UHGV virus genome: UHGV-0390448
Length of the DNA: 64,000 nt
Source of the DNA: a virus
Direction: 5' to 3' (one strand)
The first letter of the stretch is position 1; the number at the start of each line of letters is the position of its first letter. The position numbers were made by a program, and so were the translations under genes. Below the pieces are notes generated by a model that worked only from the letters and a program-made list of their open reading frames with translations, was not told the DNA's origin and ran no database searches. Of the stretch, positions 18,940-63,740 are shown one piece after another.

Positions 18940-19024
18940 ATAGCATTAGAAAAATAATTTTCGTTAACAATCTTGTGTTAGTATGGTTTAATCTTAATTT
19001 TCTAACATAAAACATTAGAACAAT
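18940..19024. promoter_or_regulatory. Cluster of three operator-like sites (TGTTAGAAAA family) in a divergent promoter region
   Basis: cattagaaaaat at 18943-18954, attttctaacat at 18997-19008 (inverted), cattagaaca at 19013-19022; immediately upstream of the ORF at 19023. Confidence 0.6.
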
Positions 19025-19415
19025 GGCGTACAAGATCTTCGTTTCATACAAAAATGGTGCTAAAAGCCATTCTCTGAACACAAGCAGCAGATGCCTTGTA
19101 GAAGCTCAACTGTCATCAATCCTTACTGAAAGAGACATTCTTTCCTTGGCTGAACGAATCGTGATTCTCCATTCAGGTAAGGCTATTCTTAATGTTCCTG
19201 CGCTTACCCCGCCTTCTGACGTTTTGGCATCTGTTAAGTGGCCTCAAATCGGCACACCTGTAAGAGTGGAAGATCCTGTAACCACCACTCTTTATATGCC
19301 GAAGTCAGTAAGGGATTGGCTTGCTGCGGTTGGTAATGGGAAGGTCAGCGCGGGGCTTCGGAAGTTAGTGGAAATGGCTGATATTCCGGAGCTGAAAAAT
19401 GCATGGAGACAGTGA
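19023..19415 (+). CDS. Hypothetical protein under putative operator control
   Basis: 130-aa ORF starting directly after the operator cluster. Confidence 0.5.
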   Translation: MAYKIFVSYKNGAKSHSLNTSSRCLVEAQLSSILTERDILSLAERIVILHSGKAILNVPALTPPSDVLASVKWPQIGTPVRVEDPVTTTLYMPKSVRDWLAAVGNGKVSAGLRKLVEMADIPELKNAWRQ

Positions 19416-19885
19416 GCAGAGGACACATGAGTCACGCGAACCCATCGAAAACACAATATCGTTTAATGCTGGCTATCGCGTCAGCTATACCAACCAGCCT
19501 GAATCCACCCGCTGGCTATCCCGCTATTGTTGATGATTGTTTTCAGTATTACGGAGAAGACATCCTGAGCCAGTCCAAAGCGCTCAAGCAGTTATGTAAG
19601 GCAGGTATTCTTCACTGTATCGGAGATCCGGACGATTTTGTTGTTATGCTGGCGGATCGTGACTCTTTTCTGCTGTCATGGAAAGCCGGGGCGCGCGAAG
19701 CGCGTTTGGGCAATGGTATTGGCTACATCGACTATAGCGATTGTCCGCTGGCATTTGCTGGTGGATATATGCATTGGCATGAGCGAAATAGAGGCCGTCA
19801 GCGCCAGTATCGCTTGAGTGACTTTAACGTCTGTCACGGTTTCGAAGAAGCTGACAGCCAGGACATCTGGCTTCAGGAGCCTTAA
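19403..19885 (+). CDS. Hypothetical protein
   Basis: 160-aa ORF overlapping the previous gene end. Confidence 0.45.
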   Translation: METVSRGHMSHANPSKTQYRLMLAIASAIPTSLNPPAGYPAIVDDCFQYYGEDILSQSKALKQLCKAGILHCIGDPDDFVVMLADRDSFLLSWKAGAREARLGNGIGYIDYSDCPLAFAGGYMHWHERNRGRQRQYRLSDFNVCHGFEEADSQDIWLQEP

Positions 19886-20205
19886 CCCCCCTTCCCTTCC
19901 CAAATCTCCCTATTCCTTTGGTTATTCAGTACGTTTCGTTGGTTGCATTCATCGATAGTGCTGAATAACTGTTCAGTGTATGCCGGATACTTGTTTAACA
20001 GCACAGGCGTGTCCTCTGGCACTATGCAAGGGGTATAATCAATCAGATTTCCCTGCGGTTTGCTGGTGGCTTCTACGGTAATTTGCATTGGCACGCTGAT
20101 TGATTTCTTTTGCCCGTTCCCGCTGCATCCTGATAACGTCATCAGGCACACGCACATCATTAACCCCAGCATTGCGTAAAGCAGTTTCAAGACGAGTAAT
20201 TTCAT
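19882..20205 (-). CDS. Outer-membrane spanin (Rz1-like lipoprotein)
   Basis: 107 aa with signal peptide and lipobox LSGC; its start lies inside the i-spanin gene in another frame (overlapped spanin architecture). Confidence 0.7.
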   Translation of the reverse strand: MKLLVLKLLYAMLGLMMCVCLMTLSGCSGNGQKKSISVPMQITVEATSKPQGNLIDYTPCIVPEDTPVLLNKYPAYTEQLFSTIDECNQRNVLNNQRNREIWEGKGG

Positions 20206-20497
20206 TCTGGCTTTCCTCCCGTTGTTTGATCAGGCTGGTATTCAGTTCTGCTGTTTTGCGCTGGTACTCCTTCTCCAGTGTTTTAATTCTTTCGTTTTCA
20301 GCCATCATGGCAGATCGCGATTTTTCACTTAACTGCAATGCGGTAGAAAGCGTGTTGTTCTCGCTTTCAAGTTGTGATTTTGAGTCTTCCAGGGAACGGA
20401 TATACCTGATGTGATCGATAACTGCCGCCGTAGTACGGTAAATTCCATAAATGGCTAAAAGCGCAACTACTATCAAAATTATCTTTTTCAAAACCAT
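20039..20497 (-). CDS. Inner-membrane spanin (Rz-like)
   Basis: 152 aa, N-terminal transmembrane helix followed by a long coiled-coil periplasmic domain; overlaps the o-spanin gene. Confidence 0.7.
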   Translation of the reverse strand: MVLKKIILIVVALLAIYGIYRTTAAVIDHIRYIRSLEDSKSQLESENNTLSTALQLSEKSRSAMMAENERIKTLEKEYQRKTAELNTSLIKQREESQNEITRLETALRNAGVNDVRVPDDVIRMQRERAKEINQRANANYRRSHQQTAGKSD

Positions 20498-20567
20498 CCT
20501 CTTCAGATTTTTTGTTGGTGTGATATGTGTACCAATTTGTAACCATTTATGGGCTTAAATGGTGTGG

Positions 20568-21362
20568 TTATGGTTCCTTTTTAGTGTTGCTTTGGAGCGC
20601 ATCGATTACACCTTGTGGCATGATCAAACTGATTGCCGGACTCATTACTTCATCGCCCAGTAGAGAACCGGTTAACGTAATAGCTACAGCATTTTCCAGT
20701 CCCTGTTTGGCTTTTCCGGTAGAGTCCTTAACTTGCTGTGCAAGTGTTGAGAGACTACTGCTCGTGTTGTTTATTGCATTTATTTGTTCTGTTGCTGCTT
20801 CCACAGCGTCTTTTAGTGCTTTGATCTCTTCTTCTGTTAGTGCTGGTTGCTGTGTTGTTCCGGTGGAACTTCCGTTGCCTGAAGCCTCCCCGCTTGACGC
20901 CTGAACTTTTGCATTTATAGCGGTCATAGCTGAAGTGATTGGCACCAGTTCAAATGCTGCCAACGCGTCAATAAGCGATTGCGGATGCAGGGTATCTCCC
21001 ATAACTGTTACGAGAGCAAATTCTGGCGCAGGAGATAACTCATTACCTTTGACGTAACATTCCCAGCCAATTTTCATCTGAAGTAATTCAGTTGGCGAAG
21101 TATACGGAGACAGCGAGTCGGCTAAATTGGTTGCTTCTGCACTGACAGTTTTCAGTTGTTCTGAAAAGACAGAAAGCTGATTGACCCATGAAACCACCGA
21201 CGCCGGGTATGCTTTATCCTTCAGGATAAGAGCCTGGATATTCTCTTCCAGAGAACTGGCATTGGATGACGCTGTTTTACTTAGCGTGATAGATGCAGGC
21301 GTAGTTGTGCCTGATGCATTTAGAATTTTGAATGCGTTAACTTCAGCGATTGAATCAAGCAT
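20568..21362 (-). CDS. Hypothetical protein
   Basis: 264-aa Ser/Thr/Ala-rich ORF between the PAAR-like gene and the spanins. Confidence 0.4.
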   Translation of the reverse strand: MLDSIAEVNAFKILNASGTTTPASITLSKTASSNASSLEENIQALILKDKAYPASVVSWVNQLSVFSEQLKTVSAEATNLADSLSPYTSPTELLQMKIGWECYVKGNELSPAPEFALVTVMGDTLHPQSLIDALAAFELVPITSAMTAINAKVQASSGEASGNGSSTGTTQQPALTEEEIKALKDAVEAATEQINAINNTSSSLSTLAQQVKDSTGKAKQGLENAVAITLTGSLLGDEVMSPAISLIMPQGVIDALQSNTKKEP

Positions 21363-21646: not shown

Positions 21647-21704
21647 CTAACACCTCCTTTTTCTTAAATCTTCTCCACTTTGTGATTTTCACTCTTCAGA
21701 TTTC

Positions 21705-21880: not shown

Positions 21881-21895
21881 CAGAAGTGGAGCAAT

Positions 21896-23273: not shown

Positions 23274-23274
23274 T

Positions 23275-24551: not shown

Positions 24552-24575
24552 AAAGCCCCATATGGGGCTTTTCTT
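24552..24575. terminator. Bidirectional terminator between the ParG-like gene and dmt
   Basis: aaaagcccca-ta-tggggctttt: stem flanked by A-tract on one side and T-tract on the other. Confidence 0.7.
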
Positions 24576-26988
24576 AATTAAGCGTGGCTATAATGTCGTT
24601 AGCTATCATTCGCGTTGATGCTTTACAGGATACAGAGCGACGGGATGGCATAGGATACACCTTGAAGCCATTGCCAACGTAAAGTTCGCGAATGTTAGGC
24701 GCTCCACTGTTTGTTATCACAATTTTCGCCCCGCGTCTGTGAGCATCTACCAGCAGCGACACCAGCCGTTGTTGATCTTCAAACCTAAAGCTATGCCCTG
24801 AGTAATTTGTAAATCCGGTAGTGTCGGGCAATGGTTCATAGGGGGGATCGCAGAAAATCACATCATCATTCCCGGCAGCCTCAATTACACCAGCAAAATC
24901 GCCGGACACAAATTCCGAATACTTTGAAATATCGTCAGCCAGGAACGCCTCCATTTCCGCGAGAGGGAAGTAGGGAGATTTCTGCTTTCCATATCCGACG
25001 TTGAACTCTCCTTTACGGTTATAGCGAGTGACGCCATTAAAACAATGACGATTGAGATACAGGAACGCCGCTGCATGGTGAAGAGAATCATAAGCACCAT
25101 TGTTGAATGCATTGCGAACATTCAAAAATGCATCAGCAGAGTTGTAATCCTGAAAATAACGATATGCCAGTGTGATAAGAGAATACCCTTCACGCTGCAA
25201 TGTCTGATAGAAGTTAATCAGGTCACCGTTAATATCATTAAGCAGGTTGTGGCGAAAACCTGCATTCGTAAATACGGAACCGCCACCAACGAATGGTTCT
25301 ATTAACCGCTTGCCGTGTGGCAGATGCTCAAGCACTGTAGGCAACCCTGAGAATTTACCGCCTACCCATTTGAATATTGGGCGCTCATATTCATCCGGAG
25401 TCCGGAGTTTTCTAGTGTAGGTAATGGTATTTATTGTTTTTTGCTGTTTATCCGCCACGGTCGCAAGAATGCGACACCCAATCCATTGCATAACAGGAAC
25501 TGCCATGCTGTTGCCGATCGCTTTGTAACGCGGTCCGTCAGCTGCAAGCATCGCGGCCTCTTCTTCGCTTAAATCTGGATAGTGATTGCGCAGATATGCC
25601 AGTTCATCTGAATTAACTTTTTTACGCTTTTCCGTAGGGATCAACGTATGCCCATCAGGAAAACCTTGAAGTCTCTCACATTCGACAGGGGTAAGACGGC
25701 GGACAGCTACTTCTTCGTTTCTTACTTCATAGCAAACAGCAGTTGGATTTTGAGCCATTAGAGATGGTGAAGTATTCTTAGTTGCTGCATGTTGTGTACC
25801 ACTCATACGCTCAGGAAAAGCCAATGTAACAAGATGCCCATGGCTTTCTTGCTCACGCGCCCGCAATGTACCATGCCCTTCTGACCAAAAACCTGCTCCA
25901 GTGCTGCTAAAAACGGCAAGGTCAGTGGCATCTTTAAAGTCTCTTGCCTTTACTGTCGATGCGGTTTCATCGTCAATATATTCCCCAAATGCCGCCATCC
26001 TGAAACCGTTTACGGCTTTCGTCGATTTCATATCGGGGGACATGCCAGCGTGTAGGCATGGATTTAGGCTTTCGCCACTGATTGCAGCGCCATTTGCAGT
26101 AATGGCGGAAGCGATTTCCTTCTTTTTTCGGCTCGGCGCAATATTCCGGCGCACGCCTTCGAACTCAAAAAGTACCGTTGCGGGATCGAGGTCTGTTCGA
26201 GCACTTGCGACAACAAACACGCGTCGGCGTCGTTGTGCCACTCCGAAGTATTGGGCATCAAGGATTCTCCAGGCCACTTTTCGCTGCGGTCCATAAATAC
26301 AACCACACTGCGGCCACTTTGGAGCATGGCTACCGGTTTTGGCATCCCACCGCCAGAACGCGTTACTTTTTCGTGATTCAGGTCGATCACCAGGTTCGAA
26401 TGGCGCATTTTCTCCAGCCAATCCGGCAAGGAAACATCCGAATGCGTTATCTGCTGATGACAGGACTCCTGGGACATTTTCCCATACGATGACGGCTGGT
26501 TTGAGAAAGGACTCGGCCCGTTTGTCGTCAATTGCATTTGCAAGCTCCACATATTTTAAAGTTAGCGCGCCGCGCTCATCATCAAGCCCACCACGCAAGC
26601 CCGCGATACTGAATGCCTGACAAGGGGTTCCTCCGACGAGAACATCCGGGGCTTCAATTTTTCCAGCCCGGATCTTCTTAGCAAGTTTTGTCATGTCGCC
26701 AAGGTTGGTGACATGAGGCCAGTGGTGCGCAAGAACGGCAGACGGAAAAGGCTCGATTTCAGCAAACCAAGCCGGACGCATACCCAACGGTTCCCAGGCA
26801 ATGCTTGCGGCTTCAATTCCACTGCAAACCGAACCATATCGAAGATTAATGCTCTGCTTCACCGCCAATGGCCTCCACCAGCGAGCTAAACATCGCGGAT
26901 AATTCGCTTGTGAACAGAATGAAGTCAGCATCAAACCGCTGGGCAACATCTTCACGGTCGATGTCATCGTTCTGGTCATAGAGATCAT
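24574..26988 (-). CDS. dmt: Bifunctional DNA methyltransferase, N-terminal C5-cytosine (Dcm-like) fused to C-terminal N6-adenine (Dam-like) domain
   Basis: N-terminal part has CSGIEAASIAW (motif I-like) and GGTPCQAFSIAG (PCQ motif IV); C-terminal part has FVGGGSVF and DPPY. The true start is probably internal, since the ORF as drawn overlaps the upstream gene by about 140 nt. Confidence 0.8.
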   Translation of the reverse strand: MISMTRTMTSTVKMLPSGLMLTSFCSQANYPRCLARWWRPLAVKQSINLRYGSVCSGIEAASIAWEPLGMRPAWFAEIEPFPSAVLAHHWPHVTNLGDMTKLAKKIRAGKIEAPDVLVGGTPCQAFSIAGLRGGLDDERGALTLKYVELANAIDDKRAESFLKPAVIVWENVPGVLSSADNAFGCFLAGLAGENAPFEPGDRPESRKSNAFWRWDAKTGSHAPKWPQCGCIYGPQRKVAWRILDAQYFGVAQRRRRVFVVASARTDLDPATVLFEFEGVRRNIAPSRKKKEIASAITANGAAISGESLNPCLHAGMSPDMKSTKAVNGFRMAAFGEYIDDETASTVKARDFKDATDLAVFSSTGAGFWSEGHGTLRAREQESHGHLVTLAFPERMSGTQHAATKNTSPSLMAQNPTAVCYEVRNEEVAVRRLTPVECERLQGFPDGHTLIPTEKRKKVNSDELAYLRNHYPDLSEEEAAMLAADGPRYKAIGNSMAVPVMQWIGCRILATVADKQQKTINTITYTRKLRTPDEYERPIFKWVGGKFSGLPTVLEHLPHGKRLIEPFVGGGSVFTNAGFRHNLLNDINGDLINFYQTLQREGYSLITLAYRYFQDYNSADAFLNVRNAFNNGAYDSLHHAAAFLYLNRHCFNGVTRYNRKGEFNVGYGKQKSPYFPLAEMEAFLADDISKYSEFVSGDFAGVIEAAGNDDVIFCDPPYEPLPDTTGFTNYSGHSFRFEDQQRLVSLLVDAHRRGAKIVITNSGAPNIRELYVGNGFKVYPMPSRRSVSCKASTRMIANDIIATLN

Positions 26989-27751
26989 CGCAAAACGTCA
27001 GTGCTTTGATGCTCATGTCATCGTTTAACCTGAAGGTCGCGCGGTCCTGCCAGTTGATTGCAACTGTTGTTGCAACTTTTCCGGCTTCAATATGAGTCAT
27101 TATTTCCTCTGACTGTAGGTCTACTTTCTTGCAACGAACTGCGCCGCCGTCATCGAACAGAGATTTCAATATGGCTTCTTCGCCTGCTTTAAAGCCTTGA
27201 GGAAATGTTGACTTGAACCATTCGGTCATAGTCATTTCGAGCGGTTCTATCGGCGTGAATGGAATCACCGGAAGGCTGCCAAGTGATTTACGTAAGAGCG
27301 CCAGCATTTCTTCTGCTTTTCTGGCGCTGGAAGCTTCTACGAAGACCAGATAGTTGTCGCGATCAATAAGGATTCGCGACAATGATTTGCGAGTGAATGC
27401 GCGAGGCAACAAAGAGTGGAGAACTTCATCCTTCAGGGTGTTTTTTTCCGACTTCTTCAGCTTACGGGATTGCTCATTTTCGAGCTTTTCCACTTTTTTC
27501 TGCACTTCCTCCTTAATGACATGAGAGGGCAGGAGCTTAATTTCTCGCTGTTGCTGGAGAAGTAGAAAACCGTGGTATTCATGGATCAGGTTGTCAGCCA
27601 GAACCGGCACCCATCCGACTTTTGCCATTTCTTGTGATGCGCATGGAGTGAATGTGAATTGGCTTAAGGCATCACTAACGGTGGTTGAGTCCAGTTTAAT
27701 TTCGCGGGCAAGGCGATAGACGTATATGTTTTTAAATGCGACCAATCTCAT
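26846..27751 (-). CDS. RdgC-like recombination-associated protein
   Basis: 301 aa; extensive collinear similarity to E. coli RdgC as recalled (FKN..VYRL, FTPC.SQ.MAK.GWVP, LKDEVLHSLLPRAF, LRKSLGSLPV, DREDVAQRFDADFIL). Confidence 0.75.
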   Translation of the reverse strand: MRLVAFKNIYVYRLAREIKLDSTTVSDALSQFTFTPCASQEMAKVGWVPVLADNLIHEYHGFLLLQQQREIKLLPSHVIKEEVQKKVEKLENEQSRKLKKSEKNTLKDEVLHSLLPRAFTRKSLSRILIDRDNYLVFVEASSARKAEEMLALLRKSLGSLPVIPFTPIEPLEMTMTEWFKSTFPQGFKAGEEAILKSLFDDGGAVRCKKVDLQSEEIMTHIEAGKVATTVAINWQDRATFRLNDDMSIKALTFCDDLYDQNDDIDREDVAQRFDADFILFTSELSAMFSSLVEAIGGEAEH

Positions 27752-27752: not shown

Positions 27753-27795
27753 TTTCGTAAAACTGTGTTAGAAAATAAAACTCAATTATCTAACA
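27753..27795. promoter_or_regulatory. Operator palindrome upstream of the rdgC-like/dmt operon
   Basis: Perfect 13-bp inverted repeat aaactgtgttaga ... tctaacacagttt separated by 17 bp, each arm carrying the TGTTAGA core. Confidence 0.6.
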
Positions 27796-36842: not shown

Positions 36843-37769
36843 TTAACTAATAATCCAGTCGGTTGCTGCTACATCTTCTGGCTGCAAATCAATCGCACAG
36901 ATCTTACCGTCGCGAATGGTGCGCCAGTTTTTCCGTGAGCCTCTTTCGGGCCATACCCAGACACTTTCAGGCCAGGATGCTCGACGGCATACGGTTGCAT
37001 ACCCTGTTTTAATCTTCTCTCTGGCGGTATGCAACGACAGGTTTGCCTTTGGACTTTCAGGCACAGGATGGTGAATGGCCTGAAATAGCCCCATCCTGGG
37101 ATGATACCAGCGTTTGTTACGTGGTTCTGCCTCCGACATAACCTGCTTAAAGGCTTTCCGGAAGGGGGCCAGGGCCACAATGGAACGTCGCGCAAGCAAA
37201 CCGTCGGGAGTTAAAAACTCATGCGTATCAGTGGGTATCCGGTAAGCGTTGACCAGGTTACGGCATTTGGCTTCAGTCAGGCCACATTTCGCCGCCAACT
37301 GGCGGTAGCCAATGTAGCCTTCCGGAATATTGCCTTTCTTGATCTGCTCGACGGTTTCAGCGACTTTGGACACTTGTGCCGATACTTCGGCTACCTGGGC
37401 ATTAACAGCGTTGATCCGGCGTTCATGCTCAAGATGCATTTGCGCCATTTCAGCCAGGATTTCGGCTTTTGATTTTAACGGTCCCCTGGCATTCTCCAGT
37501 TCGCGCCAGCGGTCCACCAGCCGGGCGGTGAATTCCGGAGAGAGCTGTGCGACGACAATGATACTATCGCGCTTGCCTTGCTCGCCTTCGAAGACGTAAT
37601 AGCTCGCCGGGCGGCCTGCGGTGGGCTTTTCCTCAATTTGAGGAAAAGATATTACGCCCCGTTCCGCCAGGTGTTCAATGGTGCGTTTAACGTTATCAGG
37701 GCGCTTACCTACCAGTTCCGCGATCTCAATGCTGGTCATTGTCGCTTTTTGAGAGATGGACAGATTCAT
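36843..37769 (-). CDS. Rha-family antirepressor-like protein
   Basis: N-terminus MTSIEIAELVGKRPDNVKRTIEHL matches the phage Rha regulatory domain; position downstream of the icd-like ORF and c4-like RNA mirrors the P1 immI operon. Confidence 0.6.
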   Translation of the reverse strand: MNLSISQKATMTSIEIAELVGKRPDNVKRTIEHLAERGVISFPQIEEKPTAGRPASYYVFEGEQGKRDSIIVVAQLSPEFTARLVDRWRELENARGPLKSKAEILAEMAQMHLEHERRINAVNAQVAEVSAQVSKVAETVEQIKKGNIPEGYIGYRQLAAKCGLTEAKCRNLVNAYRIPTDTHEFLTPDGLLARRSIVALAPFRKAFKQVMSEAEPRNKRWYHPRMGLFQAIHHPVPESPKANLSLHTAREKIKTGYATVCRRASWPESVWVWPERGSRKNWRTIRDGKICAIDLQPEDVAATDWIIS

Positions 37770-37984
37770 CAGTGCACCTCCACGCAGTTCATCGGCAGAT
37801 TCCAGTAATTGAGGATCTCCATCGCATCAAGAGTGAAGCGAGCAGCAAAAATGCAGGGTTCTTCGGGAAGGTATGAGCGCGCTTCTGCTTCGGTAGCTGC
37901 CATGACGCAGATGTAGAGGTGTTTTTGGCAGGAATAGAAACGCCAGATAAATTCAGAATGAGTTGGGGTAGGGATAGTAGCCAT
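37769..37984 (-). CDS. Icd-like small ORF
   Basis: 71-aa ORF with a perfect SD (AAGGAGG), stop overlapping the antirepressor start; positional analogy to P1 icd. Confidence 0.4.
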   Translation of the reverse strand: MATIPTPTHSEFIWRFYSCQKHLYICVMAATEAEARSYLPEEPCIFAARFTLDAMEILNYWNLPMNCVEVH

Positions 37985-38165
37985 ATTGGCAGCCTCCTTT
38001 GACTAAGTTAAGGAGCTACCGCGTGAGGTTCCAATCTCAATGGCGGTAGCACTGACTGGGTTGGAACTACCGGCGTCAAAGGGAACCGGCCTGCCTTTCG
38101 GCAGCCCAGCCAGCACTACCATTGATCTCTGAGCTAAACGCTAAGTATGGCTGTGCGATGGCATG

Positions 38166-38235
38166 ACACAAAAAAAGACGCTTTCGGCGTCTGTGTCGCC
38201 TTTGACATTATCCGGGGTTCCAATCCCGGCACCCG
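38166..38235 (-). ncRNA. Candidate c4-like antisense RNA (stem-loop with AUUGGAAC loop plus intrinsic terminator)
   Basis: Minus-strand hairpin CCGGG-AUUGGAAC-CCCGG (38212-38229) followed by terminator AGACGCCGAAAGCGUCU + U7 (38169-38192); complementary GUUCCAA site at 38061-38067 on the same strand upstream of the icd-like SD. Confidence 0.4.
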
Positions 38236-38783
38236 TTTTTCTAAGGTGCCGTAGAAATATACCCCACGATAATGCCTGGGCGCAACAGTCTGTATTTTTA
38301 TGCTTTGGAGGATTTCTTCCGGGCTTGTTTGCAAGCGTAGGCCATTGCTTTAGCTTTCACTTCATCCAGCTTTCCGGTGATCACTTCTTTTCCGAGAGTG
38401 ACAAACCAGTCATAGCAACCGCCAGTGATGTTCTGGATTTGAAAGTTGAGGTAGCGAACGGTCATTTTGACACCCCCAGCGCGAGTAAAGAATGCAGATT
38501 ATCGCGTGAGTGGCGGACAATGAGTGATGGGGAAAGACAGTAGTTGTTCATAGTGTAGTGACTCCTTGCTTTCGGAGCCGCCATCGACTGTTCCACGGTC
38601 TGGTGGCGGCGCAATAAAGGCTGGAACACCGTGAGTCAACGGGGGCTTTTCAGCCACCTATATTGCACCGCCATTGGTATGGCGGCGGCAATCATACGAA
38701 AAACCAAACGGTTTGTCTCAAAAAGTTGACCGGTGTACCAATCGGTTGTGAATGTACAACGGTGAATTTCACAATTCAACTTA

Positions 38784-38800
38784 AAATGTTAGAAAACTAA
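38784..38800. promoter_or_regulatory. Operator-like site at the head of the immI-like operon
   Basis: aaatgttagaaaactaa matches the TGTTAGAAAAYTAA family. Confidence 0.55.
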
Positions 38801-39414
38801 TTTATTAATTCAGTCACCATCTGATACAACGTCATTTCATCAGCATTGTGCCGCCTGAAATCTGCTTTGCCGCCTATTTTTCCATCAGCATGAACAGGGA
38901 CCAACCAGGGGTATTGCTCGCGTATCTCTGCTGGCGCTGCGTGTTGATGGTGCCATTTACACAAAGGGAGAACGTATTTATGCGCGTTCTCTGCCGTTCT
39001 CCCGAAGATGTGGTGCAGGGATACCACAGGGCTATGCTGTCCGTGCATATGGCAGGCAATGCAGGGGAGGGCACCGATGGCAGTTTGTATCCGGCGCTCA
39101 TCTGCTGTGAGTGTTCTGCCTTTCAGGCCGCGTGACGCGCGAGTTTTTTTGACAGGAGCAGAAGCGGCCTTCTCTTTTCTTCGCTGTTCATATTGCTTCG
39201 CTTTTTCAATTTTCTTTTGCCGATATTCAGGCGATGCGGCTTTTTCTCGCGCACGCTGCTGCTGGCGTTGAGCTTGCTGAAGACGTTTTGCCCTTTGTTC
39301 CTCCCGCCATTTCGGATCAGCCAGTTTTTGCAGGGCTTTTTGTGTCTGTTTCTCCCAATAGCTTTGCTTCATAGAAATACCCGGTTTGTCTACATCGCCG
39401 CTATGGTTGATCAA
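38797..39414 (-). CDS. ref: Ref-like HNH endonuclease
   Basis: 205 aa; K/R/Q-rich disordered N-terminal half, C-terminal Cys/His cluster (CIACHMHG ... SLHHIFG ... PLCKWHH); perfect palindromic operator directly upstream. Confidence 0.5.
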   Translation of the reverse strand: MINHSGDVDKPGISMKQSYWEKQTQKALQKLADPKWREEQRAKRLQQAQRQQQRAREKAASPEYRQKKIEKAKQYEQRRKEKAASAPVKKTRASRGLKGRTLTADERRIQTAIGALPCIACHMHGQHSPVVSLHHIFGRTAENAHKYVLPLCKWHHQHAAPAEIREQYPWLVPVHADGKIGGKADFRRHNADEMTLYQMVTELIN

Positions 39415-39415: not shown

Positions 39416-39449
39416 TGTGTTAGAAAATCAAAATTGATTTTCTAACACA
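39416..39449. promoter_or_regulatory. Perfect 34-bp palindromic double operator
   Basis: tgtgttagaaaatcaa-aa-ttgattttctaacaca, 2 nt upstream of the ref-like start and about 170 nt upstream of the divergent plus-strand genes. Confidence 0.7.
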
Positions 39450-44255: not shown

Positions 44256-44288
44256 GATGTTAGAATATTGATTTTAATTTTCTAACAG
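44256..44288. promoter_or_regulatory. Inverted pair of operator-like sites
   Basis: gatgttagaatattgattttaattttctaacag upstream of the ORF at 44330. Confidence 0.55.
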
Positions 44289-44329: not shown

Positions 44330-45325
44330 ATGAGTGCAATAATCACACCTCATTTCGTAAACGGAGCTGGTGTGGCTGTCTTTCCGGTAGACAAGCCCAC
44401 CAGTAACTACATTGGCGCAGGTCGCCGTTTCATTATCTCTCCACTTCCGCGTGAACAGGCTGAAAACACGCCAGATGGCGTAGTGGATCTGAATTATTCG
44501 CTGGTTGCCAACCAGTCTCTGAAACCGTTTTTTCAAAGCGAGCGCGTATTTAACGCGTTGGGCGGTGAAGATTCGCTTGTTCATTGGGTAAGTTCCAATA
44601 TCCACGATTGCCAGGCGCACGATAAGCGCGATTGCAGCCACCAGCTAACCACTCATTTCTATAACGGCTCTGCCGTTCGCCTGTGCTGGAAGCATGATGC
44701 GGAATACATGATGAAGGGGTACGGCAAGCTGGACGACCAGTTATCCCTGAATCGTGCCAACTGGGTTATGAACTGGGCTGCGAGCGAGTTAAAACTACCG
44801 CCAGAACGCGATCTGAGCATGGTTGAACTCACTTTTTGGGCCATTCGCCGGAATCTGAAAGACGAGCTGCCAGATGAAGCCGGTCGCATTGCATTTTGTC
44901 AGCCAAAACAGGAAATCCCTACCGGCACACTGAAAGAATCGGATATCACCTGGGAGCACAGCACCCGTGAGCTGGTGGACATAACCGCAGAGCAGATCGT
45001 CAACCTGTCTGTAGATGAGGATTCCGGCCTGCTGTATATGCGCCGACCAAAAGCGGTTCTCGGTAAAAGCCCGGCTTATCTCCGGTTTGTGATTTCTCGT
45101 CCGTGCATCGGATGCGGTGGCAAAGTTAATCACCCGTTCATGTACCGCGCCCGCTCGTTAAACGAACACGATCGCTGGGCCGTTCCTCTTTGCGATGAAT
45201 GCGCCAGAAGCGCAGAAAACGATGTCCGGGCATGGGAAAAAACACATGGCATACGCCTTTACGTAGCCGCTAACCAGCTTTTCGACTTCGCCATCGAGCG
45301 CGGAGTGATCACGTTCAATAACTGA
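44330..45325 (+). CDS. Hypothetical protein with C-terminal Cys cluster, under putative operator control
   Basis: 331 aa; CIGCGG ... CDEC near the C-terminus. Confidence 0.45.
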   Translation: MSAIITPHFVNGAGVAVFPVDKPTSNYIGAGRRFIISPLPREQAENTPDGVVDLNYSLVANQSLKPFFQSERVFNALGGEDSLVHWVSSNIHDCQAHDKRDCSHQLTTHFYNGSAVRLCWKHDAEYMMKGYGKLDDQLSLNRANWVMNWAASELKLPPERDLSMVELTFWAIRRNLKDELPDEAGRIAFCQPKQEIPTGTLKESDITWEHSTRELVDITAEQIVNLSVDEDSGLLYMRRPKAVLGKSPAYLRFVISRPCIGCGGKVNHPFMYRARSLNEHDRWAVPLCDECARSAENDVRAWEKTHGIRLYVAANQLFDFAIERGVITFNN

Positions 45326-53929: not shown

Positions 53930-55036
53930 TCACTCAATGATTTTTTCTGCTGTCAGCCAGCTAATTTCTTGCCTGTCTTTCGGCGGTTTTAGCATGTGGG
54001 CGTATTCAGCGACATTCTCCCACGGAATTGTTTTTGCCCACTCAACGATAGCATTGTGATCTGCAGTGAAGAGTGGAATGGTGTGCGATTTCAACCACTC
54101 TAATGTTGTAACGCCATGTTTTTTTGCGTGGTGCTGTGCATGATGCCGGGCTATCACTTGTAATGGCATTGTCCATTCACTACCATCAGGCATCGAAAAG
54201 CGCATTGTTTTCGGCATATCTGATTCAAGAACAGCCTCCCGAATACCCGGGAACTCACCAAGAACCATGCGACGGTAATCATCGCCGATTTTACCACCAT
54301 ACATTTCTGCAATCCCATCAAGATAATCTTGAGTAAGCAGAGGTGATTCTTCTGCGTTCAGCTTGATGGCTGTATAAATACCACATGGATTTTCTTCAGT
54401 TTTTGCACGACCATGATGGGAATCGTAAAAGTGTCCATGTTCCTCCTCTGGAGGAGCGGACATTAAAAGTATACGTGAATCGTCACTCACTAAAGATGCT
54501 CTTAACATCCCGAATAGCCGATAGCTTACAAGAGCCGCGTCCATAACAATGATCAAAAGATGTTCAGCATAATATCCGGCTACATCTTCCTCATAATTTA
54601 GGCGATATGGTTTAATTTCGCAGCCCCAAGATTTTTGGTAACGATGATTGAGGCCATTTTGGTCGATTTGAAAATACTCTCCCAGTAATGGCGCTTTTGT
54701 ATTAGCTTTCTCCCAATACATATTCATGAGTGAGAGAGTTACCATTCCATTACGCTCAAAGTCTGGAGCGACCATGACCGTTTTAGACTCAGGCATCAGG
54801 ATCGTATAAAGGATACAAATGATAGCCAGAGCAGACTTATGTCCTATCCCAGTCGGTGTGGTAACGCTGACTGCTGAACCTTTTTGTTGAATCGCTTCAA
54901 CAATTAATTTTTGCTGGTGGGTTAACTTAACCCCCATCAACTCTTCTGCTGCTAATGCCCAGTCATGGCTATATTTGCTTACCAGCTCTCTCCACTCTGG
55001 TAATTCGGTGATGTTTTTAGGCGTCAGCATCAGCAT
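53930..55036 (-). CDS. Terminase-large-subunit ATPase-domain paralog with degenerate Walker motifs and no nuclease domain
   Basis: 368 aa, collinear with the first ~240 aa of the PacB-like terminase (shared AEHLL.I, MLSQPTRPSGYFYESHH vs LLMSAPPEEEHGHFYDSHH, NPEGVWTAIVLNSEESP vs NPCGIYTAIKLNAEESP), but Walker A reads PTGIGHKS and Walker B IIVMDAA (no DE); C-terminal 130 aa unrelated. Confidence 0.6.
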   Translation of the reverse strand: MLMLTPKNITELPEWRELVSKYSHDWALAAEELMGVKLTHQQKLIVEAIQQKGSAVSVTTPTGIGHKSALAIICILYTILMPESKTVMVAPDFERNGMVTLSLMNMYWEKANTKAPLLGEYFQIDQNGLNHRYQKSWGCEIKPYRLNYEEDVAGYYAEHLLIIVMDAALVSYRLFGMLRASLVSDDSRILLMSAPPEEEHGHFYDSHHGRAKTEENPCGIYTAIKLNAEESPLLTQDYLDGIAEMYGGKIGDDYRRMVLGEFPGIREAVLESDMPKTMRFSMPDGSEWTMPLQVIARHHAQHHAKKHGVTTLEWLKSHTIPLFTADHNAIVEWAKTIPWENVAEYAHMLKPPKDRQEISWLTAEKIIE

Positions 55037-57869: not shown

Positions 57870-57900
57870 ACTGTCTAAAAAGATTGTTAGAAAATTAATT
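57870..57900. promoter_or_regulatory. Tandem operator-like sites between the recombinase gene and the downstream operon
   Basis: actgtctaaaaag + attgttagaaaattaatt; the second is a full match to the TGTTAGAAAAYTAA family. Confidence 0.55.
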
Positions 57901-58928
57901 CAGGAATCCATCAGGCGACTATTTGCACCAACGGATGCCCCGCTACGGCGCAAATATCGCATAAGTGTTTCGGGCTTTTTCCATGTGCCTTCCTGCATGA
58001 TCTCGACCATTGACACCTGTTTCTCAGCCATATCAATTGCCGCACCAACACGCGCACTATGACCTGTCCACGTCCGGTATCTTCCTTTGTTCGGCGTGGC
58101 ATCTCGCTTATTCAGCAATCCCCAGGCATCGCTGAATATTTTCTCCATCGCAGGAGCAGTAAGAGGCGTTGTCGTGATTCTGGCTTTATTACTGCGGTGT
58201 ATTGGCGGGAATAGCACCGCGTCCGGATGTTCACGAAGTCCGGACACCTCCAGCCAGTCGTTTAGCACGGCGGTAGTGCAACGAGAAAGCACCTTATCAA
58301 GTCCGGCGGCGGTCGTGATGGTCTTCGTGTGTGAAATATGCAGCGTTACAGTGTCACCTGTTTGGTCCAGATCTCCGACACGGATGCGCGAGATTTCTGA
58401 CATACGCATCAGGGTATTGTATGCCACGAAGAGAAACGCCCGATTGCGCAGGTCCACCAGCCGCTCGGAACGGGACAGCAATACGTCGAGCAATTTCAGA
58501 TCATCCCACCGCAACGGTATAGCCTGGCCTGTACGCTCGCCTTTTTCCGTTGCCGCTTCGCGCCGGATGCGCCGCATGGCCAGAGATACACTTTTATCGT
58601 CTGACAGCGGCGGTAGGCCGCATTGCGAAAGCAGCATGTTAAGCATGGCATAGTGCTTATCAATGGTGGTCGAAGCCAGATCGGCTTCATGCAACTGGAG
58701 AAGATACTCGCGGGCCATTTCCGGCGTAATCGGGAACCAGGGGCGCTGGCGCGAATTACACCACCGCGCCCAGGAATGAAAGACCAGACGGAGATCACGA
58801 AGTGTATTTGGGGCATAAGCTCCCTGGTCGTTCATGAACTGCATAAAGTTTTTTGCAGCTTCCTGGTATTCGGTGCCAATATCGCGCAGAAAACCGCCAG
58901 AACCGCCGGAGATAACTAGTTCACCCAT
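57900..58928 (-). CDS. Cre-family tyrosine recombinase (Dre-like)
   Basis: 342 aa, collinear with P1 Cre (WFP..PE..R.YLL.L, VSL.MRRIR, IRNLAF..AYNTL.R..EI.RIRV.D, W.GHSARVGAA.DMA, EIMQ.G.W, .Y.R.); about 45-50 percent identity by eye; catalytic R/H/R/W/Y positions conserved. Confidence 0.9.
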   Translation of the reverse strand: MGELVISGGSGGFLRDIGTEYQEAAKNFMQFMNDQGAYAPNTLRDLRLVFHSWARWCNSRQRPWFPITPEMAREYLLQLHEADLASTTIDKHYAMLNMLLSQCGLPPLSDDKSVSLAMRRIRREAATEKGERTGQAIPLRWDDLKLLDVLLSRSERLVDLRNRAFLFVAYNTLMRMSEISRIRVGDLDQTGDTVTLHISHTKTITTAAGLDKVLSRCTTAVLNDWLEVSGLREHPDAVLFPPIHRSNKARITTTPLTAPAMEKIFSDAWGLLNKRDATPNKGRYRTWTGHSARVGAAIDMAEKQVSMVEIMQEGTWKKPETLMRYLRRSGASVGANSRLMDS

Positions 58929-59079: not shown

Positions 59080-59113
59080 CTAACTTTAAATAATGCCAAT
59101 TATTTAAAGTTAG
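59080..59113. other. lox-type recombination site (rox-like): 13-bp inverted arms around an 8-bp spacer
   Basis: cTAACTTTAAATA-ATGCCAAT-TATTTAAAGTTAg; arms are perfect inverted repeats and share TAACTT...ATA with loxP arms; the 32-bp core equals the rox sequence as I recall it; 150 bp upstream of the recombinase gene. Confidence 0.85.
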
Positions 59114-59194
59114 AAATCGGGACTTTTTTCCCAAAAAAACACCGGCAAGATCACTTCGCAAATCTGTCAGCCATGCGGTAGCCGTTTCCTGGTT

Positions 59195-59297
59195 ACATTT
59201 TCTAATAGGAACAATCAAAAAAAAGCGGTTTTATCCTTTACTCACCTTGTTATTCAGCATAAATTTGTCACAGGACTTTTATGTTAGAAAACTAAAT
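59195..59297. promoter_or_regulatory. Two operator-like sites upstream of the 59310 ORF
   Basis: acattttctaatagg (59195-59209, inverted) and ttatgttagaaaactaaat (59279-59297). Confidence 0.55.
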
Positions 59298-59309: not shown

Positions 59310-60347
59310 ATGAGTAAGAAGTCGATCGAGAATGAGTACAAACGGTTCCTGCAAACCGCTGAACGGTGGAAAGAGCTGGTGGTCGCAAACTCTGTTTTCC
59401 ATGATACCAGTTACGTTGGCGAGGAATTTCGCCATGTTGCATTAACACATGATCCGGCTGTATTAGAAGAAGCTGAAAAATGCATAGCCGAATGGAAAGC
59501 CTTTGTTGATCTGTGTCGCAAGGATGATGACAAAGCCTCAAACATTGTTGAGTCGGTTTATTTACCGATCCCATTCATTGTTGAGGATACTAATCAGAGT
59601 ACGCATATCGTTATGCAAAGCGCAACCACAACGAGAACATTTACGCGCGAAGACCTGCTGAAAAAATACGATAAAACTATAAAGAAAAGCATGAAAAACA
59701 GGATCTTTTCACAGGTTGTCGGTGCGCTTGAAGAAGAACGCAGATTCTTCGCCGCAGAACGTGAGGGCGAGGTATACCGCGCAAGAAAAGAAGGTTATAC
59801 CGATGTGGTGATTACCACCAATATCGAGGGCAACAATGGACTTTCACGCTTCAGAGTGGGTACGCACGGTGCGCTGATCTTTGCAAAAAAAGCAAACACA
59901 GAGATTCCCGTTGTTAACAACGTTGGTGAGCGCCGCACCCTTACCATTTACACTGGCATTAAACCGCTTCCGTGCGGACTTCTCGGCGAATTTGACCTTT
60001 ATCGGGTTCGTGACCTGGAAAAGCAGCAGCCAAGCTATGTCGTGAAGTCATATATCCTGAGAAACATTGATATCCGCAATCAGAGTTTAAAAAACAAATC
60101 AGAGAAAATGCTGTCCGAAGCCGATCCAGCCATACACCAGATCGTTAGCCGGAAAATTCAAGAAGCTAAAGATGCAATGGCAAGGCTGGATAAAATGGAC
60201 CTGGAACTACTGGAAGTTATGATTGCCTCCGGCGATGACCTGACAGGCATCCGCCTTACTGAAGCCAGGAAAAAATACGGTAAAAGCGTTGAAGAACGCT
60301 ATGGGTACACATTCACACAAACGATGTACGCGGCAAAACTCTGGTAA
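59310..60347 (+). CDS. Hypothetical protein in the position of the immunity repressor (between lox-like site and pacB)
   Basis: 345 aa from ATG 59310 (RBS AGTAGGA); operator-like sites in its 5-prime region. I could not recognise similarity to P1 C1, so the repressor assignment is positional only. Confidence 0.4.
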   Translation: MSKKSIENEYKRFLQTAERWKELVVANSVFHDTSYVGEEFRHVALTHDPAVLEEAEKCIAEWKAFVDLCRKDDDKASNIVESVYLPIPFIVEDTNQSTHIVMQSATTTRTFTREDLLKKYDKTIKKSMKNRIFSQVVGALEEERRFFAAEREGEVYRARKEGYTDVVITTNIEGNNGLSRFRVGTHGALIFAKKANTEIPVVNNVGERRTLTIYTGIKPLPCGLLGEFDLYRVRDLEKQQPSYVVKSYILRNIDIRNQSLKNKSEKMLSEADPAIHQIVSRKIQEAKDAMARLDKMDLELLEVMIASGDDLTGIRLTEARKKYGKSVEERYGYTFTQTMYAAKLW

Positions 60348-60364
60348 TCGCAAGCCACCCACAA

Positions 60365-60386: not shown

Positions 60387-61893
60387 AAATGTCAATATCA
60401 GGAATATCCACTTCTGCCAACACCTGATCGCGGAATGTTGCTAGTTCTGCGCCAATGTCTTCATTAGCAGGCACGTAATCCACCAGCATAGTGAAGCAGT
60501 AGGTATCCCATCTGTCCGGCGACTTGATGTTTAACTTCTGCCGCATGTGCTCCTTGCGCATCATCGCCACCTTCCCTTCTTCGTTAAGCATATACGGGAT
60601 TTTTGATGCCTGATCGGCAGTTTTGGGGTCACTATCGATACGCATACGCCCTGATTTAATGGCATCCCCTGCCATAATATTGGCGTAAGCACGCTGATTG
60701 ACAAAGCGTTCTCTGTCTCTTAGCGCAAACATAGGTTTACCCCAACGGATGCGAACGGGATTAGCACCACGGCGGACAAGCTGCGCACACGTATCTGAAC
60801 CAAAGCCATCAGCATCCACAGCAATGGTGATGTTCGGGTATTTATCAGGAGTGCATTCGTTATAGATAAAGTCGGCAAAAGCCAACGGGTCCATAGTGCC
60901 TGGCATCTCCAGTATCTTAAAGTTCACAACACGTCGTTTCTCACGATAACCGGATACTTTGCATATATTGAGCACCGATTTGTCGCGACCATTACCGACG
61001 TCAGCGGTCGCTACCCAGCCCCAATCTTTCTCCAGCAACACTTTACGCCGTGCGGCGCGGTCGCACTCATCACGACCAAGCAAATACCCGTTAATTGCAC
61101 GCGGGAACTGGCCCAGCACCTTAACCATGTACTCCAGCGAATCCCTGCCGCCGTACTCCAGCAATTTCTCACGAATAAAGCTCGGTTCAACGAATGGAGA
61201 TTCTTCAGAGTTAAGGACTATTGCCGTCCAGACTCCTTCCGGATTGCCTTCTGCCTTTGCCCTTGAATGGTGGGATTCATAAAAGTAACCGCTTGGACGC
61301 GTAGGCTGGGAAAGCATGAGCATACGGTTATCTTTCTGCGTTAACGCCCCCGTCATGACGTTAATCGCCTTATCTGATATGCCCGATGCTTCATCAAGGA
61401 TTAGCAGTAAATGCTCCGCGTGCTCCCCCGCCAGTGCCTCTTCGTTACCGAGTCGATAACCTTTACAGAGCACTTCCCATATCCCTTTACGGGAACGCTC
61501 ATAAAACATGGTGTCAGACAGGACAAAATAGGTCTGTAACCAGCCGTGGCGCTTAACAGCATTCGCCCAAAACTGTTTCACGTATTTGAATACGCCTGTT
61601 TTTACCTGGCCTATTTTGTTCGCAACAATAATGACGCGGGCGTCGGGGAACAGGATCATAAAAATTAGTAGCAACATCGCGGTAAGGGACGACTTACCCG
61701 TTCCGTGTCCGGACGTAACGGTCGTCCTGCTCCCCGTCTCCTGCACTGACTGAATGATCTGCTGCTGCTGGTGGGAGGGGAACATCCCAAAAATATCGAC
61801 AACCGCCTGGGTAAAGTTGTATCGATACCTGATAACCATATCGCGCCAACGTGGATCACTGGTGACGCACTTAATCTTACGACCACCAGCCAT
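60385..61893 (-). CDS. pacB: Terminase large subunit (PacB-like)
   Basis: 502 aa; N-terminal ATPase with Walker A-like SGHGTGKSS and Walker B LLLILDEA, C-terminal RNaseH-like nuclease region with conserved acidic residues; start overlaps the upstream stop (TAATG). Confidence 0.8.
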   Translation of the reverse strand: MAGGRKIKCVTSDPRWRDMVIRYRYNFTQAVVDIFGMFPSHQQQQIIQSVQETGSRTTVTSGHGTGKSSLTAMLLLIFMILFPDARVIIVANKIGQVKTGVFKYVKQFWANAVKRHGWLQTYFVLSDTMFYERSRKGIWEVLCKGYRLGNEEALAGEHAEHLLLILDEASGISDKAINVMTGALTQKDNRMLMLSQPTRPSGYFYESHHSRAKAEGNPEGVWTAIVLNSEESPFVEPSFIREKLLEYGGRDSLEYMVKVLGQFPRAINGYLLGRDECDRAARRKVLLEKDWGWVATADVGNGRDKSVLNICKVSGYREKRRVVNFKILEMPGTMDPLAFADFIYNECTPDKYPNITIAVDADGFGSDTCAQLVRRGANPVRIRWGKPMFALRDRERFVNQRAYANIMAGDAIKSGRMRIDSDPKTADQASKIPYMLNEEGKVAMMRKEHMRQKLNIKSPDRWDTYCFTMLVDYVPANEDIGAELATFRDQVLAEVDIPDIDI

Positions 61894-63257
61894 TAGTCAT
61901 CCTCCGGCTGGTCTATCGCAATCTCGTCATCTACAGCATCAAAACCGGTATCCCCCGCGTCATAATCACCGTAGATATCAGCCGTGGCGGAAGGGTCTAT
62001 ATTCAGGTCTTCATCATTGGCCTCAAATTCACCGGCTTTACGTTCTCCGTTCCGGTCGTAATCCCCCATCCCAAGCCTATCAACGATTTTCGCTACTTCA
62101 GCCCGGCGTTGTGCAAGCCATTGTGGGAGTCCAGCTTGTTGCTCGGCAAACTGCTTCGCCTCTTTATCCAGTTGCTCATCATCAACATCGTTAACGTCAG
62201 AAACCGGAGGCTCCAGAAGTGAGATCGCTTTTGCCGCTCGTGCCGCCAGGATAGCCGGGACACTGACGCCCTGCCGCTCGATATATTCAGCAACGCCTAT
62301 ATCGTCCAGCTCCTCGCGCTCACGCATACGTATAGCGGCGGCGATAACTCTGGCGGCGCGTGCGTCAGCGCCAATGCGATACTCAATCTCTTTGCCACGC
62401 TGCTCGGCTTGCAGGCGAGTAATCGCCAGTTTTTCTCTGGCCTCAGCCTCTCTGAATGCCTGCTGGCGCGCGCCCTGCGCAAGTTTTTCATCCCCCTGGC
62501 GTAGCTTCTGCTCGGTCTGGTAGATGGCAGCCAACCTACTGATAAAGTCATTCATGTAGTAGGCCGCATCGCTTATTAGGCCGAGAAGACGCTGCCCTGG
62601 GTGCATTCCCTCTGGCTGTGTATCGCCGAGGGCGTCAATCTCTTCCTGTAGTCGTTCCGCTTCCTGGTCAACGATGGCCTGATACTGAATTGCTCGTTCC
62701 TGCGCCATCTGTATCGCAAGTCGTAAATGTTCAGTCGCGCCGTTCTTCATCATCTCACGGGCGACGTTGGTGGCAGGCAAAGTGGCGCTTTGAGCTGATG
62801 AGTCAGGGATCATTTGCAATGATCCCTTGTTTCGTTGGGCTTTTTCGCTGCTTTTAGGGATCATTTCCCCCATTTCATCACAAAATGATCCCCTTACATC
62901 CTTGTGTATCTTATTGTTATTACTTGGCTTTTCTTTGTGATCCGCATTTTGTTTTTGCGGCATGGCGCGGAATCGTCCACCAGCTAACGATTTGTCAGTT
63001 TTTGTAAATTCTGTGCTTTTATCAGCCTTTTTTTGCTCTTTTTTTGGGCTTGTGGCGCTACTTTTTGCGCGCTGTTTTGTACTTTTCCCGGCAGCCTTAG
63101 CTTTCGCTTTAACCTCGTTTTTTTTCATATTGAGATGCTTTCTGGCGGTGTTAAAGCTGAGGTCATGCTGCTCGCAATATTCTTTTATGGTGATCCCGGT
63201 TTCTTCTCTTAACTCCAGGAACTTAGCTCGATGCGCTTCCCAGTTAATTAACGTCAT
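61893..63257 (-). CDS. pacA: Terminase small subunit-like protein (PacA-like) containing the candidate pac site
   Basis: 454 aa, N-terminal HTH-like region, immediately upstream of and translationally coupled to the large-subunit gene; GATC-heptamer cluster inside the coding sequence. Confidence 0.6.
   Translation of the reverse strand: MTLINWEAHRAKFLELREETGITIKEYCEQHDLSFNTARKHLNMKKNEVKAKAKAAGKSTKQRAKSSATSPKKEQKKADKSTEFTKTDKSLAGGRFRAMPQKQNADHKEKPSNNNKIHKDVRGSFCDEMGEMIPKSSEKAQRNKGSLQMIPDSSAQSATLPATNVAREMMKNGATEHLRLAIQMAQERAIQYQAIVDQEAERLQEEIDALGDTQPEGMHPGQRLLGLISDAAYYMNDFISRLAAIYQTEQKLRQGDEKLAQGARQQAFREAEAREKLAITRLQAEQRGKEIEYRIGADARAARVIAAAIRMREREELDDIGVAEYIERQGVSVPAILAARAAKAISLLEPPVSDVNDVDDEQLDKEAKQFAEQQAGLPQWLAQRRAEVAKIVDRLGMGDYDRNGERKAGEFEANDEDLNIDPSATADIYGDYDAGDTGFDAVDDEIAIDQPEDD
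62805..62946. other. Candidate pac site: five GATC sites in TGATCC(C)/GGGATCA heptamers as inverted pairs
   Basis: agggatcatt-tgc-aatgatccct (62805-62827), tagggatcattt ... aaatgatcccct (62855-62894), tgtgatccgc (62937-62946); analogous to the hexanucleotide/Dam-site architecture of the P1 pac site. Confidence 0.5.
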
Positions 63258-63646
63258 AGGGAAGCCTCACGTTTTTTCACAGCGGCGTTCCATAGCTGGT
63301 TAGTCATCGCCACCAACTGACGCTGCTCCTTTCGTAATTGAGCTTCTATCTTTCGGTTGGTGTTTTTCACCAACAGCCGACCGAATTCAGGAGTGCGCCC
63401 GCGCACCTTGAACTGGTATCCATTCAGGCCATGTAGCCAATATTTCCGGGGGTATACGCGGTCGTCTATTTCGCAAATGGCACGACTGGAACGAACAAAA
63501 AAACGTATGATGTTATTTACGTTTACGCGCGACACATGAAGGTGAGGATATTGTGCTTTTGCACGGCTGGTGATTTCGGTGACCGTCAGATAGCAGTCAG
63601 CCCTGATCATGATATCCGCTATTTCGGCGCTACTGATTTGCTCCAT
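63254..63646 (-). CDS. Hypothetical protein upstream of pacA (late-promoter-activator position)
   Basis: 130-aa ORF with ATGA overlap to pacA; operator-like site about 80 nt upstream; Lpa-like role inferred only from P1 gene order. Confidence 0.35.
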   Translation of the reverse strand: MEQISSAEIADIMIRADCYLTVTEITSRAKAQYPHLHVSRVNVNNIIRFFVRSSRAICEIDDRVYPRKYWLHGLNGYQFKVRGRTPEFGRLLVKNTNRKIEAQLRKEQRQLVAMTNQLWNAAVKKREASL

Positions 63647-63721
63647 TTATCCCCCGGATAGAAAAAGACCGAGGGGATGATAATCAGCTTGTTAATACTG
63701 AGAAGACTGTCAAAAACATGA

Positions 63722-63740
63722 TGTATTAGAAAATTAATAT
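63722..63740. promoter_or_regulatory. Operator-like site upstream of the 63254-63646 / pacA / pacB operon
   Basis: tgtattagaaaattaatat. Confidence 0.5.

Follow-up and report, generated by a model that had tools for sequence, protein, structure and literature searches.

Dispersed operator-like sites of a probable C1-family repressor in a D6-type relative of phage P1

In phage P1, the C1 repressor is served by 22 operators with an asymmetric 17-bp consensus, ATTGCTCTAATAAATTT, and represses Pc1 and P1coi via adjacent operators (PMC8546580). We took P1 operators from the protein_bind features of the P1 GenBank record, and the 15 C1 operators aligned from the part of it that was covered gave ATTGCTCTAATAAATTT as their consensus, in agreement both with that publication and with the P1 consensus given in an earlier, sequence-only reading of the DNA studied here. 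This DNA is a 64,000-nucleotide stretch (the window) of virus genome UHGV-0390448, which megablast places in the D6 lineage of P1-like plasmid prophages. It has the same gene order as Escherichia phage D6 (MF356679, AY753669), with 84–89% identity over the aligned parts, and its immC end is 98.8% identical to Escherichia coli plasmid pMUB-MIN14-1 (NZ_CP069647.1, 89.7 kb), the nearest complete plasmid. The sequence-only reading had proposed that a short motif, repeated at eight loci, marks a C1-like immunity network of non-P1 specificity. Our analysis suggests that the motif is very probably the operator of the element's own C1-family prophage repressor (59310–60347), making this network an expected, apparently so far unannotated variant of the well-known P1 immunity circuit, common to phage D6.

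The 14-bp motif TGTTAGAAAAYTAA has 12 matches at ≤ 2 mismatches in the window, whereas 100 shuffles that preserve dinucleotides average 1.00 and never exceed 4. Scoring with a weight matrix derived from the matched sites yields 12 strong sites (23.7–30.2 bits) and one intermediate site (17.8 bits), followed by a clean gap to the next best score of 10.4 bits on either strand of the window (128 kb). The 10-mer TGTTAGAAAA, present in eight exact copies, is among the commonest non-Chi 10-mers of the window. Information is confined mainly to 14 positions, with T/A-biased flanks, indicating that the unit is a short site and not a piece of a longer repeat.

All 13 sites lie outside the open reading frames (ORFs) of a crude gene map, although one overlaps the ref stop codon by 4 nt. 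With a non-coding share of 16% in that map, the chance that eight independent loci would all be non-coding is ∼5e-7, and the matrix scan found no site in the late structural genes (1–18900). The window-wide search thus upholds the enrichment and all eight proposed loci; the eight intervals were placed correctly, except that the last pair runs 13 bp past 63740, to 63753. Four of the eight loci are inverted pairs in exact 14+2+14 bp arrangements with half-sites 16 bp apart, centre to centre, and the other four carry single strong sites. The sites, and their counterparts in the P1 record, are as follows.

18944–18957, plus strand: intermediate operator-like site, CATTAGAAAAATAA, between the major capsid and orf52-like genes; partly conserved in D6
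18994–19007, minus strand: single operator, TGTTAGAAAATTAA, 0 mismatches, 29.8 bits, 15 bp upstream of the orf52-like start (19023); no operator annotated at orf52/53 in the P1 record
27766–27795, unstranded: operator pair forming a 30-bp palindrome, 14 bp ahead of the rdgC/hrdC start (27751); P1 counterpart Odmt/Op68, upstream of uhr-hrdC-dmt
38787–38800, plus strand: single operator running into the ref stop, in front of the leftward immI-like operon; P1 counterpart Omat by position, Oc4 by function
39418–39447, unstranded: paired operator between the divergent ref (ATG 39372) and orf88-like (ATG 39490) genes; P1 counterpart Oref/Op2a
44258–44287, unstranded: paired operator, after the ppp stop (44225) and before the pdcB-like DUF968 ATG (44330); P1 counterpart OpmgRa/b (Op86), right after ppp-pmgQ
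57885–57898, plus strand: single operator, 1 bp past the dre stop and 57 bp upstream of the orf117-orf116-dut operon; no operator annotated at orf117-dut in the P1 record
59194–59207, minus strand: weak auxiliary site, TATTAGAAAATGTA, ∼100 bp upstream of c1, only 4.5 bits
59282–59295, plus strand: single operator and candidate autoregulation site, 0 mismatches, 14 bp upstream of the c1 start; P1 counterpart, the operators at Pc1
63724–63753, unstranded: paired operator, 77 bp upstream of lpa; P1 counterpart Olpa/Op94

The two half-sites of 39418–39447 have the highest scores of all (30.2 and 30.1 bits). Operator-to-start-codon distances vary between 14 and 77 bp, a spread like that in P1. The targets expected by analogy with P1 are matched at ref, the end of ref, C4-icd-ant, rdgC/hrdC-dmt, lpa, and c1. 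The correspondence extends to detail at the end of ref, where P1 Omat (2628–2645) overlaps the end of the gene (2077–2637), as 38787–38800 overlaps the ref stop in the window. The expected immI-like module is likewise present, comprising an Rfam C4 RNA, icd, and ant with operator 38787–38800 upstream.

Specificity differs from that of P1, as the sequence-only reading had claimed: ATTGCTCTAATAAATTT has no match within 3 mismatches anywhere in the window, and the two consensus sequences, TGTTAGAAAAYTAA and ATTGCTCTAATAAATTT, share only the tetranucleotide CTAA/TTAG.

A candidate for the cognate repressor stands where P1 leads one to expect it, in the immC position, with pacB on one side and rox and dre on the other. 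The genes discussed here were mapped from the D6 annotation and ORF positions.

17167–18864, minus strand: major capsid gene (D6 annotation/ORF)
24574–27751, minus strand: rdgC/hrdC-dmt operon, a target, its dmt part P1-like
24574–26988, minus strand: dmt, ∼94% identical to P1 dmt (DNA)
26846–27751, minus strand: rdgC/hrdC (phrog_724)
36843–38249, minus strand: immI-like target module (isrK-like RNA, C4 RNA, icd, ant)
36843–37769, minus strand: ant, anti-repressor (phrog_63, E 2e-62)
37769–37984, minus strand: icd (phrog_1426)
38039–38126, minus strand: C4 antisense RNA (Rfam, 77.1 bits)
38171–38249, minus strand: isrK-like Hfq-binding RNA (Rfam, 62.7 bits), directly upstream of the C4 RNA
38797–39372, minus strand: ref homologue, a target (D6_87, "similar to P1 gene ref"; Ref family nuclease in the nearest plasmid)
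up to 44225, plus strand: ppp
44330–45325, plus strand: pdcB-like DUF968 gene (DUF968 match, E 6.6e-45)
57900–58928, minus strand: dre
59081–59112: 32-bp palindromic site, TAACTTTAAATAATGCCAATTATTTAAAGTTA, between dre and c1, where D6 has rox
59310–60347, plus strand: c1 homologue, candidate repressor, 345 aa
60385–61893, minus strand: pacB
61893–63257, minus strand: pacA
63254–63646, minus strand: lpa homologue, late promoter activator (synteny with D6_4 and with lpa of AY753669)

The candidate is 80% identical to D6 C1 and 21% identical to P1 C1 over 241 aa (pairwise BLASTP, E 1e-7). Both it and P1 C1 belong to phrog_1678, hhalign of the candidate against P1-type C1 gives a probability of 97.7% (E 1.9e-12, 230 columns), and PF27008 (Phage_P7_repressor_C1) is precomputed for homologues of the candidate. 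The NCBIfam equivalog model NF041318 scores it at 24.5 bits, against a cut-off of 500 and 607.5 for P1 C1 itself. By these comparisons it is a distant homologue of P1 C1 and not the same protein. Homology to P1 C1 covers the first ∼240 residues; the candidate is ∼60 aa longer, and its last ∼100 residues form a helical extension absent from P1 C1. The family is small, with 89 clusters at 50% identity among 1.84 billion proteins, and a tblastn search of 50,697 phage records returned none besides D6 C1 at E ≤ 1e-3.

Conservation in relatives follows the same map. With the window matrix, D6 has 14 sites of at least 19 bits, at orthologous loci; it also has sites upstream of repL, upstream of a second icd-ant module, and on both sides of pmgS. 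NZ_CP069647.1 has 19 motif matches where ∼1.4 are expected, at the same loci as the window and additionally upstream of repL and icd2-ant2 and at pmgR/S. The sites of these relatives at repL, icd2-ant2, and pmgR/S correspond to P1 OrepL, Oc4, and OpmgR; repL and pmgR/S lie outside the window, and their operators were observed in relatives only.

Between the window and D6, operators form islands of identity in spacers that are only 66–72% identical (rdgC, ref/orf88, c1 upstream). The pair at 27766–27795 is one such island in an rdgC spacer of 66% identity, and the right half of 39418–39447 is fully conserved where the spacer is again 66% identical. The sites at 38787–38800 and 59282–59295 are identical in D6 (75976–75997 and 195–216, respectively); 18994–19007 is conserved at 54200–54221, 44258–44287 has a D6 pair at 80705–80742, and 57885–57898 has counterparts at 89944–89965 in D6 and, in two metagenomic relatives, at 8403–8416 (L015) and 8460–8473 (L016). 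Some partner half-sites are degenerate in D6 (ref, lpa): upstream of lpa, the D6 site at 4628–4649 has a degenerate partner.

In L015 and L016, whose C1 proteins are 49% and 43% identical to the candidate, TGTTAGAAAA follows the recombinase gene and occurs at two positions in front of c1. L016 has it ahead of DUF968 as well (619–632) and, as a pair, ahead of lpa (14471–14501), whereas the lpa spacer of L015 holds a partial motif match only. The 16-bp pair offset recurs in D6, the nearest plasmid, and one distant relative. Even the weak site at 59194–59207 has a conserved TTTTCTAA core, kept in D6 at the same distance from c1 in otherwise unalignable DNA, and its position holds stronger sites in L015 (9914–9927) and L016 (9874–9887). 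Position 11 of the motif is A in all five sites of the 49% relative and T or C elsewhere, which hints at a drifting specificity. An exact copy of the palindrome was found in only seven IMG/VR contigs, six of them 45–92 kb long and the seventh a 6.6-kb fragment.

Taken with the P1 analogy, these observations suggest the following scheme. In a lysogen, C1 would occupy ∼13 sites at the eight window loci, and ∼17–19 sites at ∼13 loci on the ∼90-kb plasmid. It would shut off the sigma-70 early promoters of ref, of the divergent early operon running from orf88 to ppp, and of the C4-icd-ant anti-repressor module, rdgC-dmt, the pdcB-like operon, orf117-dut, orf52/53, and the late-gene activator lpa, as well as, beyond the window, those of repL, pmgR/S, and the second icd-ant module. 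The site in front of c1 would provide autoregulation. One C1 molecule would read one asymmetric 14–16 bp half-site, and at half of the loci, where two half-sites face each other head-to-head 16 bp apart, two molecules would sit on one 30-bp palindrome. A sequence specificity unlike that of P1 would make the element heteroimmune to P1 and P7; with D6 it is probably homoimmune, as far as motif and repressor conservation can tell.

The designation as a C1-like network holds for the repressor homologue, the targets, and the non-P1 specificity; it needs qualifying in that the system is not quite a copy of P1. Like P1 and P7, the element has its repressor gene between pacB and the lox- or rox-recombinase gene, dispersed operators at corresponding genes, single asymmetric sites plus a few two-site operators, and an anti-repressor module with a C4 RNA. 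Pairs are frequent here and have a fixed 16-bp offset, however, whereas the sole bivalent operator of the P1 record, Obanab, has an 11-bp overlapping offset. The D6-type element also has two icd-ant modules and extra targets (orf52/53, orf117-dut), and its C1 has the longer, helical C-terminus described above. Homologues of the P1 accessory proteins Coi, a C1 inactivator encoded upstream of c1, and Lxc, the co-repressor of immT, were not detected by tblastn against the window and the whole D6 genome (best E 0.57), and the gap from rox to c1 is only ∼200 bp. The absence of Lxc from a D6-like plasmid has been noted before (PMC6799933). We infer that paired sites of fixed geometry, together with the additional helices at the C-terminus, may stand in for the binding that Lxc assists in P1.

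Within the D6 lineage, the likeness comprises gene order, rox, the motif at the same loci, and the 80% identity of C1, and the differences are a DNA identity of only 81–89% and mosaic replacements. One of these affects a target directly: the window has a P1-like dmt where D6 has two separate methylase genes. The dmt region has thus been exchanged, in mosaic fashion, with the P1 lineage, although the operator of its operon is still of the D6 type. This combination of a 94% P1-like dmt with a D6-type operator fits operators that are matched to the resident repressor.

Several points weigh against assigning the motif to C1. Its roles as binder and repressor are computational assignments, and because the candidate falls far below the equivalog cut-off, the transfer of function leans on distant homology and synteny. 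Two loci (orf52 and the dre end) lack an annotated P1 counterpart. Three sites are only 14–15 bp from a start codon and would thus act downstream of the transcription start, not on the promoter core. Predicted promoters are weak as well, matching 8–9 of 12 consensus positions, and a strict scan calls them no more commonly than in shuffles. Finally, the window encodes other DNA-binding proteins (HigA-like antitoxins, Rha/Ant-type) that are conceivable binders too.

The last point underlies the best-surviving alternative, that the motif serves another DNA-binding protein of the element (Xre/HigA-type, Rha/Ant-type, or the small "DNA-binding protein" of an early operon) or of the host. C1 is a predicted binder, the annotations of D6 and of the nearest plasmid list several other putative DNA-binding proteins, and 30-bp palindromes are seen more often with dimeric helix-turn-helix proteins than with P1 C1. 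Even so, about half of the sites are isolated asymmetric half-sites, fitting a monomeric binder such as C1, and the set as a whole mirrors the P1 C1 operator map locus by locus, with a conserved site immediately upstream of c1. The motif core also tracks the C1 clade across relatives with differing accessory genes. We therefore consider a different binder improbable.

Still less probable is that the motif is a shared promoter element, such as a special −10/−35 class, or the box of the late activator Lpa. The half-site does contain −10-like hexamers (TAGAAAAT/GATAAT) and, reversed, a −35-like TTGATT. A strict sigma-70 scan found few promoters and none directly on the operators. A relaxed scan placed weak candidate hexamers on or next to operators at four loci (rdgC, orf88, pdcB, and immI): a −10-like GATAAT within the distal half-site of 27766–27795 at rdgC, a −35-like TTGATT in the pair centre at orf88 and pdcB, and, at immI, a candidate TTGAAT-17-TACATT on the minus strand, starting 7 bp downstream of 38787–38800. 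The element must also own Lpa boxes, since the P1-type −22 box AACAAGTGACTT (from the P1 record) is not above chance in the window, suggesting that the Lpa homologue of this lineage probably recognizes a different box; PF25716 (BPP1_LPA) is recorded for its orthologues in L015 and L016. The same null result indicates that the motif does not mark late promoters of the P1 kind, whose appearance is quite different. Against a promoter element of any kind, the sites may face towards or away from the gene that follows, or form perfect palindromes; they precede early and lysogeny genes, lpa and c1 included, and none lies in the 19 kb of late structural operons (1–18900), where late promoters would be expected. 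Least probable of all is that the palindromes work in the transcript, as hairpins, terminators, or processing sites, or have no role at all as A+T-rich repeats: the four pairs could fold into 13–14 bp A/U-rich hairpins and some sites lie at gene ends (ref, dre, orf5), but half of the sites are single half-sites with no partner to fold against, the pairs lack a following T-run and were not called by a terminator scan, conservation is strand-symmetric and limited to the 14–16 bp unit, and the motif is enriched 12-fold over shuffles.

With C1 as the favoured binder, its predicted fold becomes relevant to how a single asymmetric site could be read. An AlphaFold2 model of the candidate, built from nine homologues, reached a pLDDT of 83, and its only significant matches in the PDB were four E. 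coli Tus-Ter entries (Foldseek E 2e-6 to 2e-5, probability 1.0), the next match having an E of 0.27. Tus also ranked first to fourth for a poor model of P1 C1 (pLDDT 57, E 0.011–0.15). TM-scores between C1 and Tus are low, at ∼0.3, and no relationship is seen at the sequence level: none of nine C1 family members matches Pfam Ter (PF05472) at E up to 10, and hhalign of C1 against Tus gives a probability of 0.2%, or 10.8% with a 72-sequence C1 profile, which is not significant. The best of these alignments (∼11%) is co-linear, pairing C1 86–194 with Tus 146–266. A literature search for a link between C1 and Tus found nothing relevant. The two proteins also differ in function, as Tus arrests replication forks and C1 is a transcriptional repressor.

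Tus acts as a monomer on asymmetric Ter sites, and P1 C1 has been described as binding its asymmetric operators as a monomer. The modelled Tus-like fold agrees with a monomer recognizing an asymmetric site and may explain how C1 reads its operators. More broadly, we think it plausible, at somewhat less than even probability, that C1 repressors of the P1 and D6 types are structural relatives of Tus, acting as monomeric clamps with a Tus-like DNA-binding cleft, with dispersed oriented operators as a phage counterpart of Ter. Should the Tus-like fold be confirmed, it would be the more surprising of the findings. It would account for the long-noted binding of C1 to asymmetric operators without a recognizable helix-turn-helix, give mobile-element relatives to Tus, whose fold is so far an orphan confined to a narrow range of taxa, and raise the question of whether C1 bound to its operators blocks replication or transcription in a polar manner. 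Separately, the likeness of the operator to TerB, the Ter site upstream of tus in MG1655 (TGTT..AACTAA), is no better than chance, as 1872 of 5000 shuffles were as good.

D6-like phage-plasmids are common in E. coli, Shigella, and Salmonella, and 304 PLSDB plasmids match the immC region of the window. In the D6 GenBank records c1 is annotated and operators are not. A literature search found no paper on the motif or on D6 operators; it did not cover the two primary D6 papers, so an earlier description is possible. The consensus and site map would predict immunity groups, homoimmune with D6 and heteroimmune with P1/P7, and would delineate an early regulon that includes several genes of unknown function. 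Among the latter are the genes downstream of 18994–19007 (phrog_7830 and phrog_8101). The leftward immI-like operon downstream of 38787–38800 comprises orf86, orf85, the isrK-like RNA, the C4 RNA, icd, and ant. The system could also supply an orthogonal repressor/operator pair beside the Dre/rox system already taken from D6. Comparison with P1 indicates that the entire wiring of a multi-operator immunity network was retained while DNA specificity and accessory proteins (Coi, Lxc) changed.

Other repeats were observed in the window and its relatives. The 32 bp of the rox-position site recur in L015 at 9602–9633, even though the C1 of that relative is only 49% identical. L016 has a repeat of its own (ACTTCACACTT... 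/ ACTTCACACTTA.TAA.TAT.ACT), with four intergenic copies at 406–555 and 4494–4909, which a sequence scan did not find in the window. AATGTTGACT is present as three direct copies with 21 bp spacing (within 10149–10200) upstream of a RepB-family initiator gene (10312–11196) and as two inverted copies downstream of it (within 11385–11426), and these are probably iterons of the plasmid replicon. Chi sites (GCTGGTGG) are strongly over-represented, with 41 copies (14 plus, 27 minus; e.g. 2265, 3669, 7734, 10796, 14438, and 17594) compared with ∼1.9 expected from base composition; P1 is likewise rich in Chi sites.

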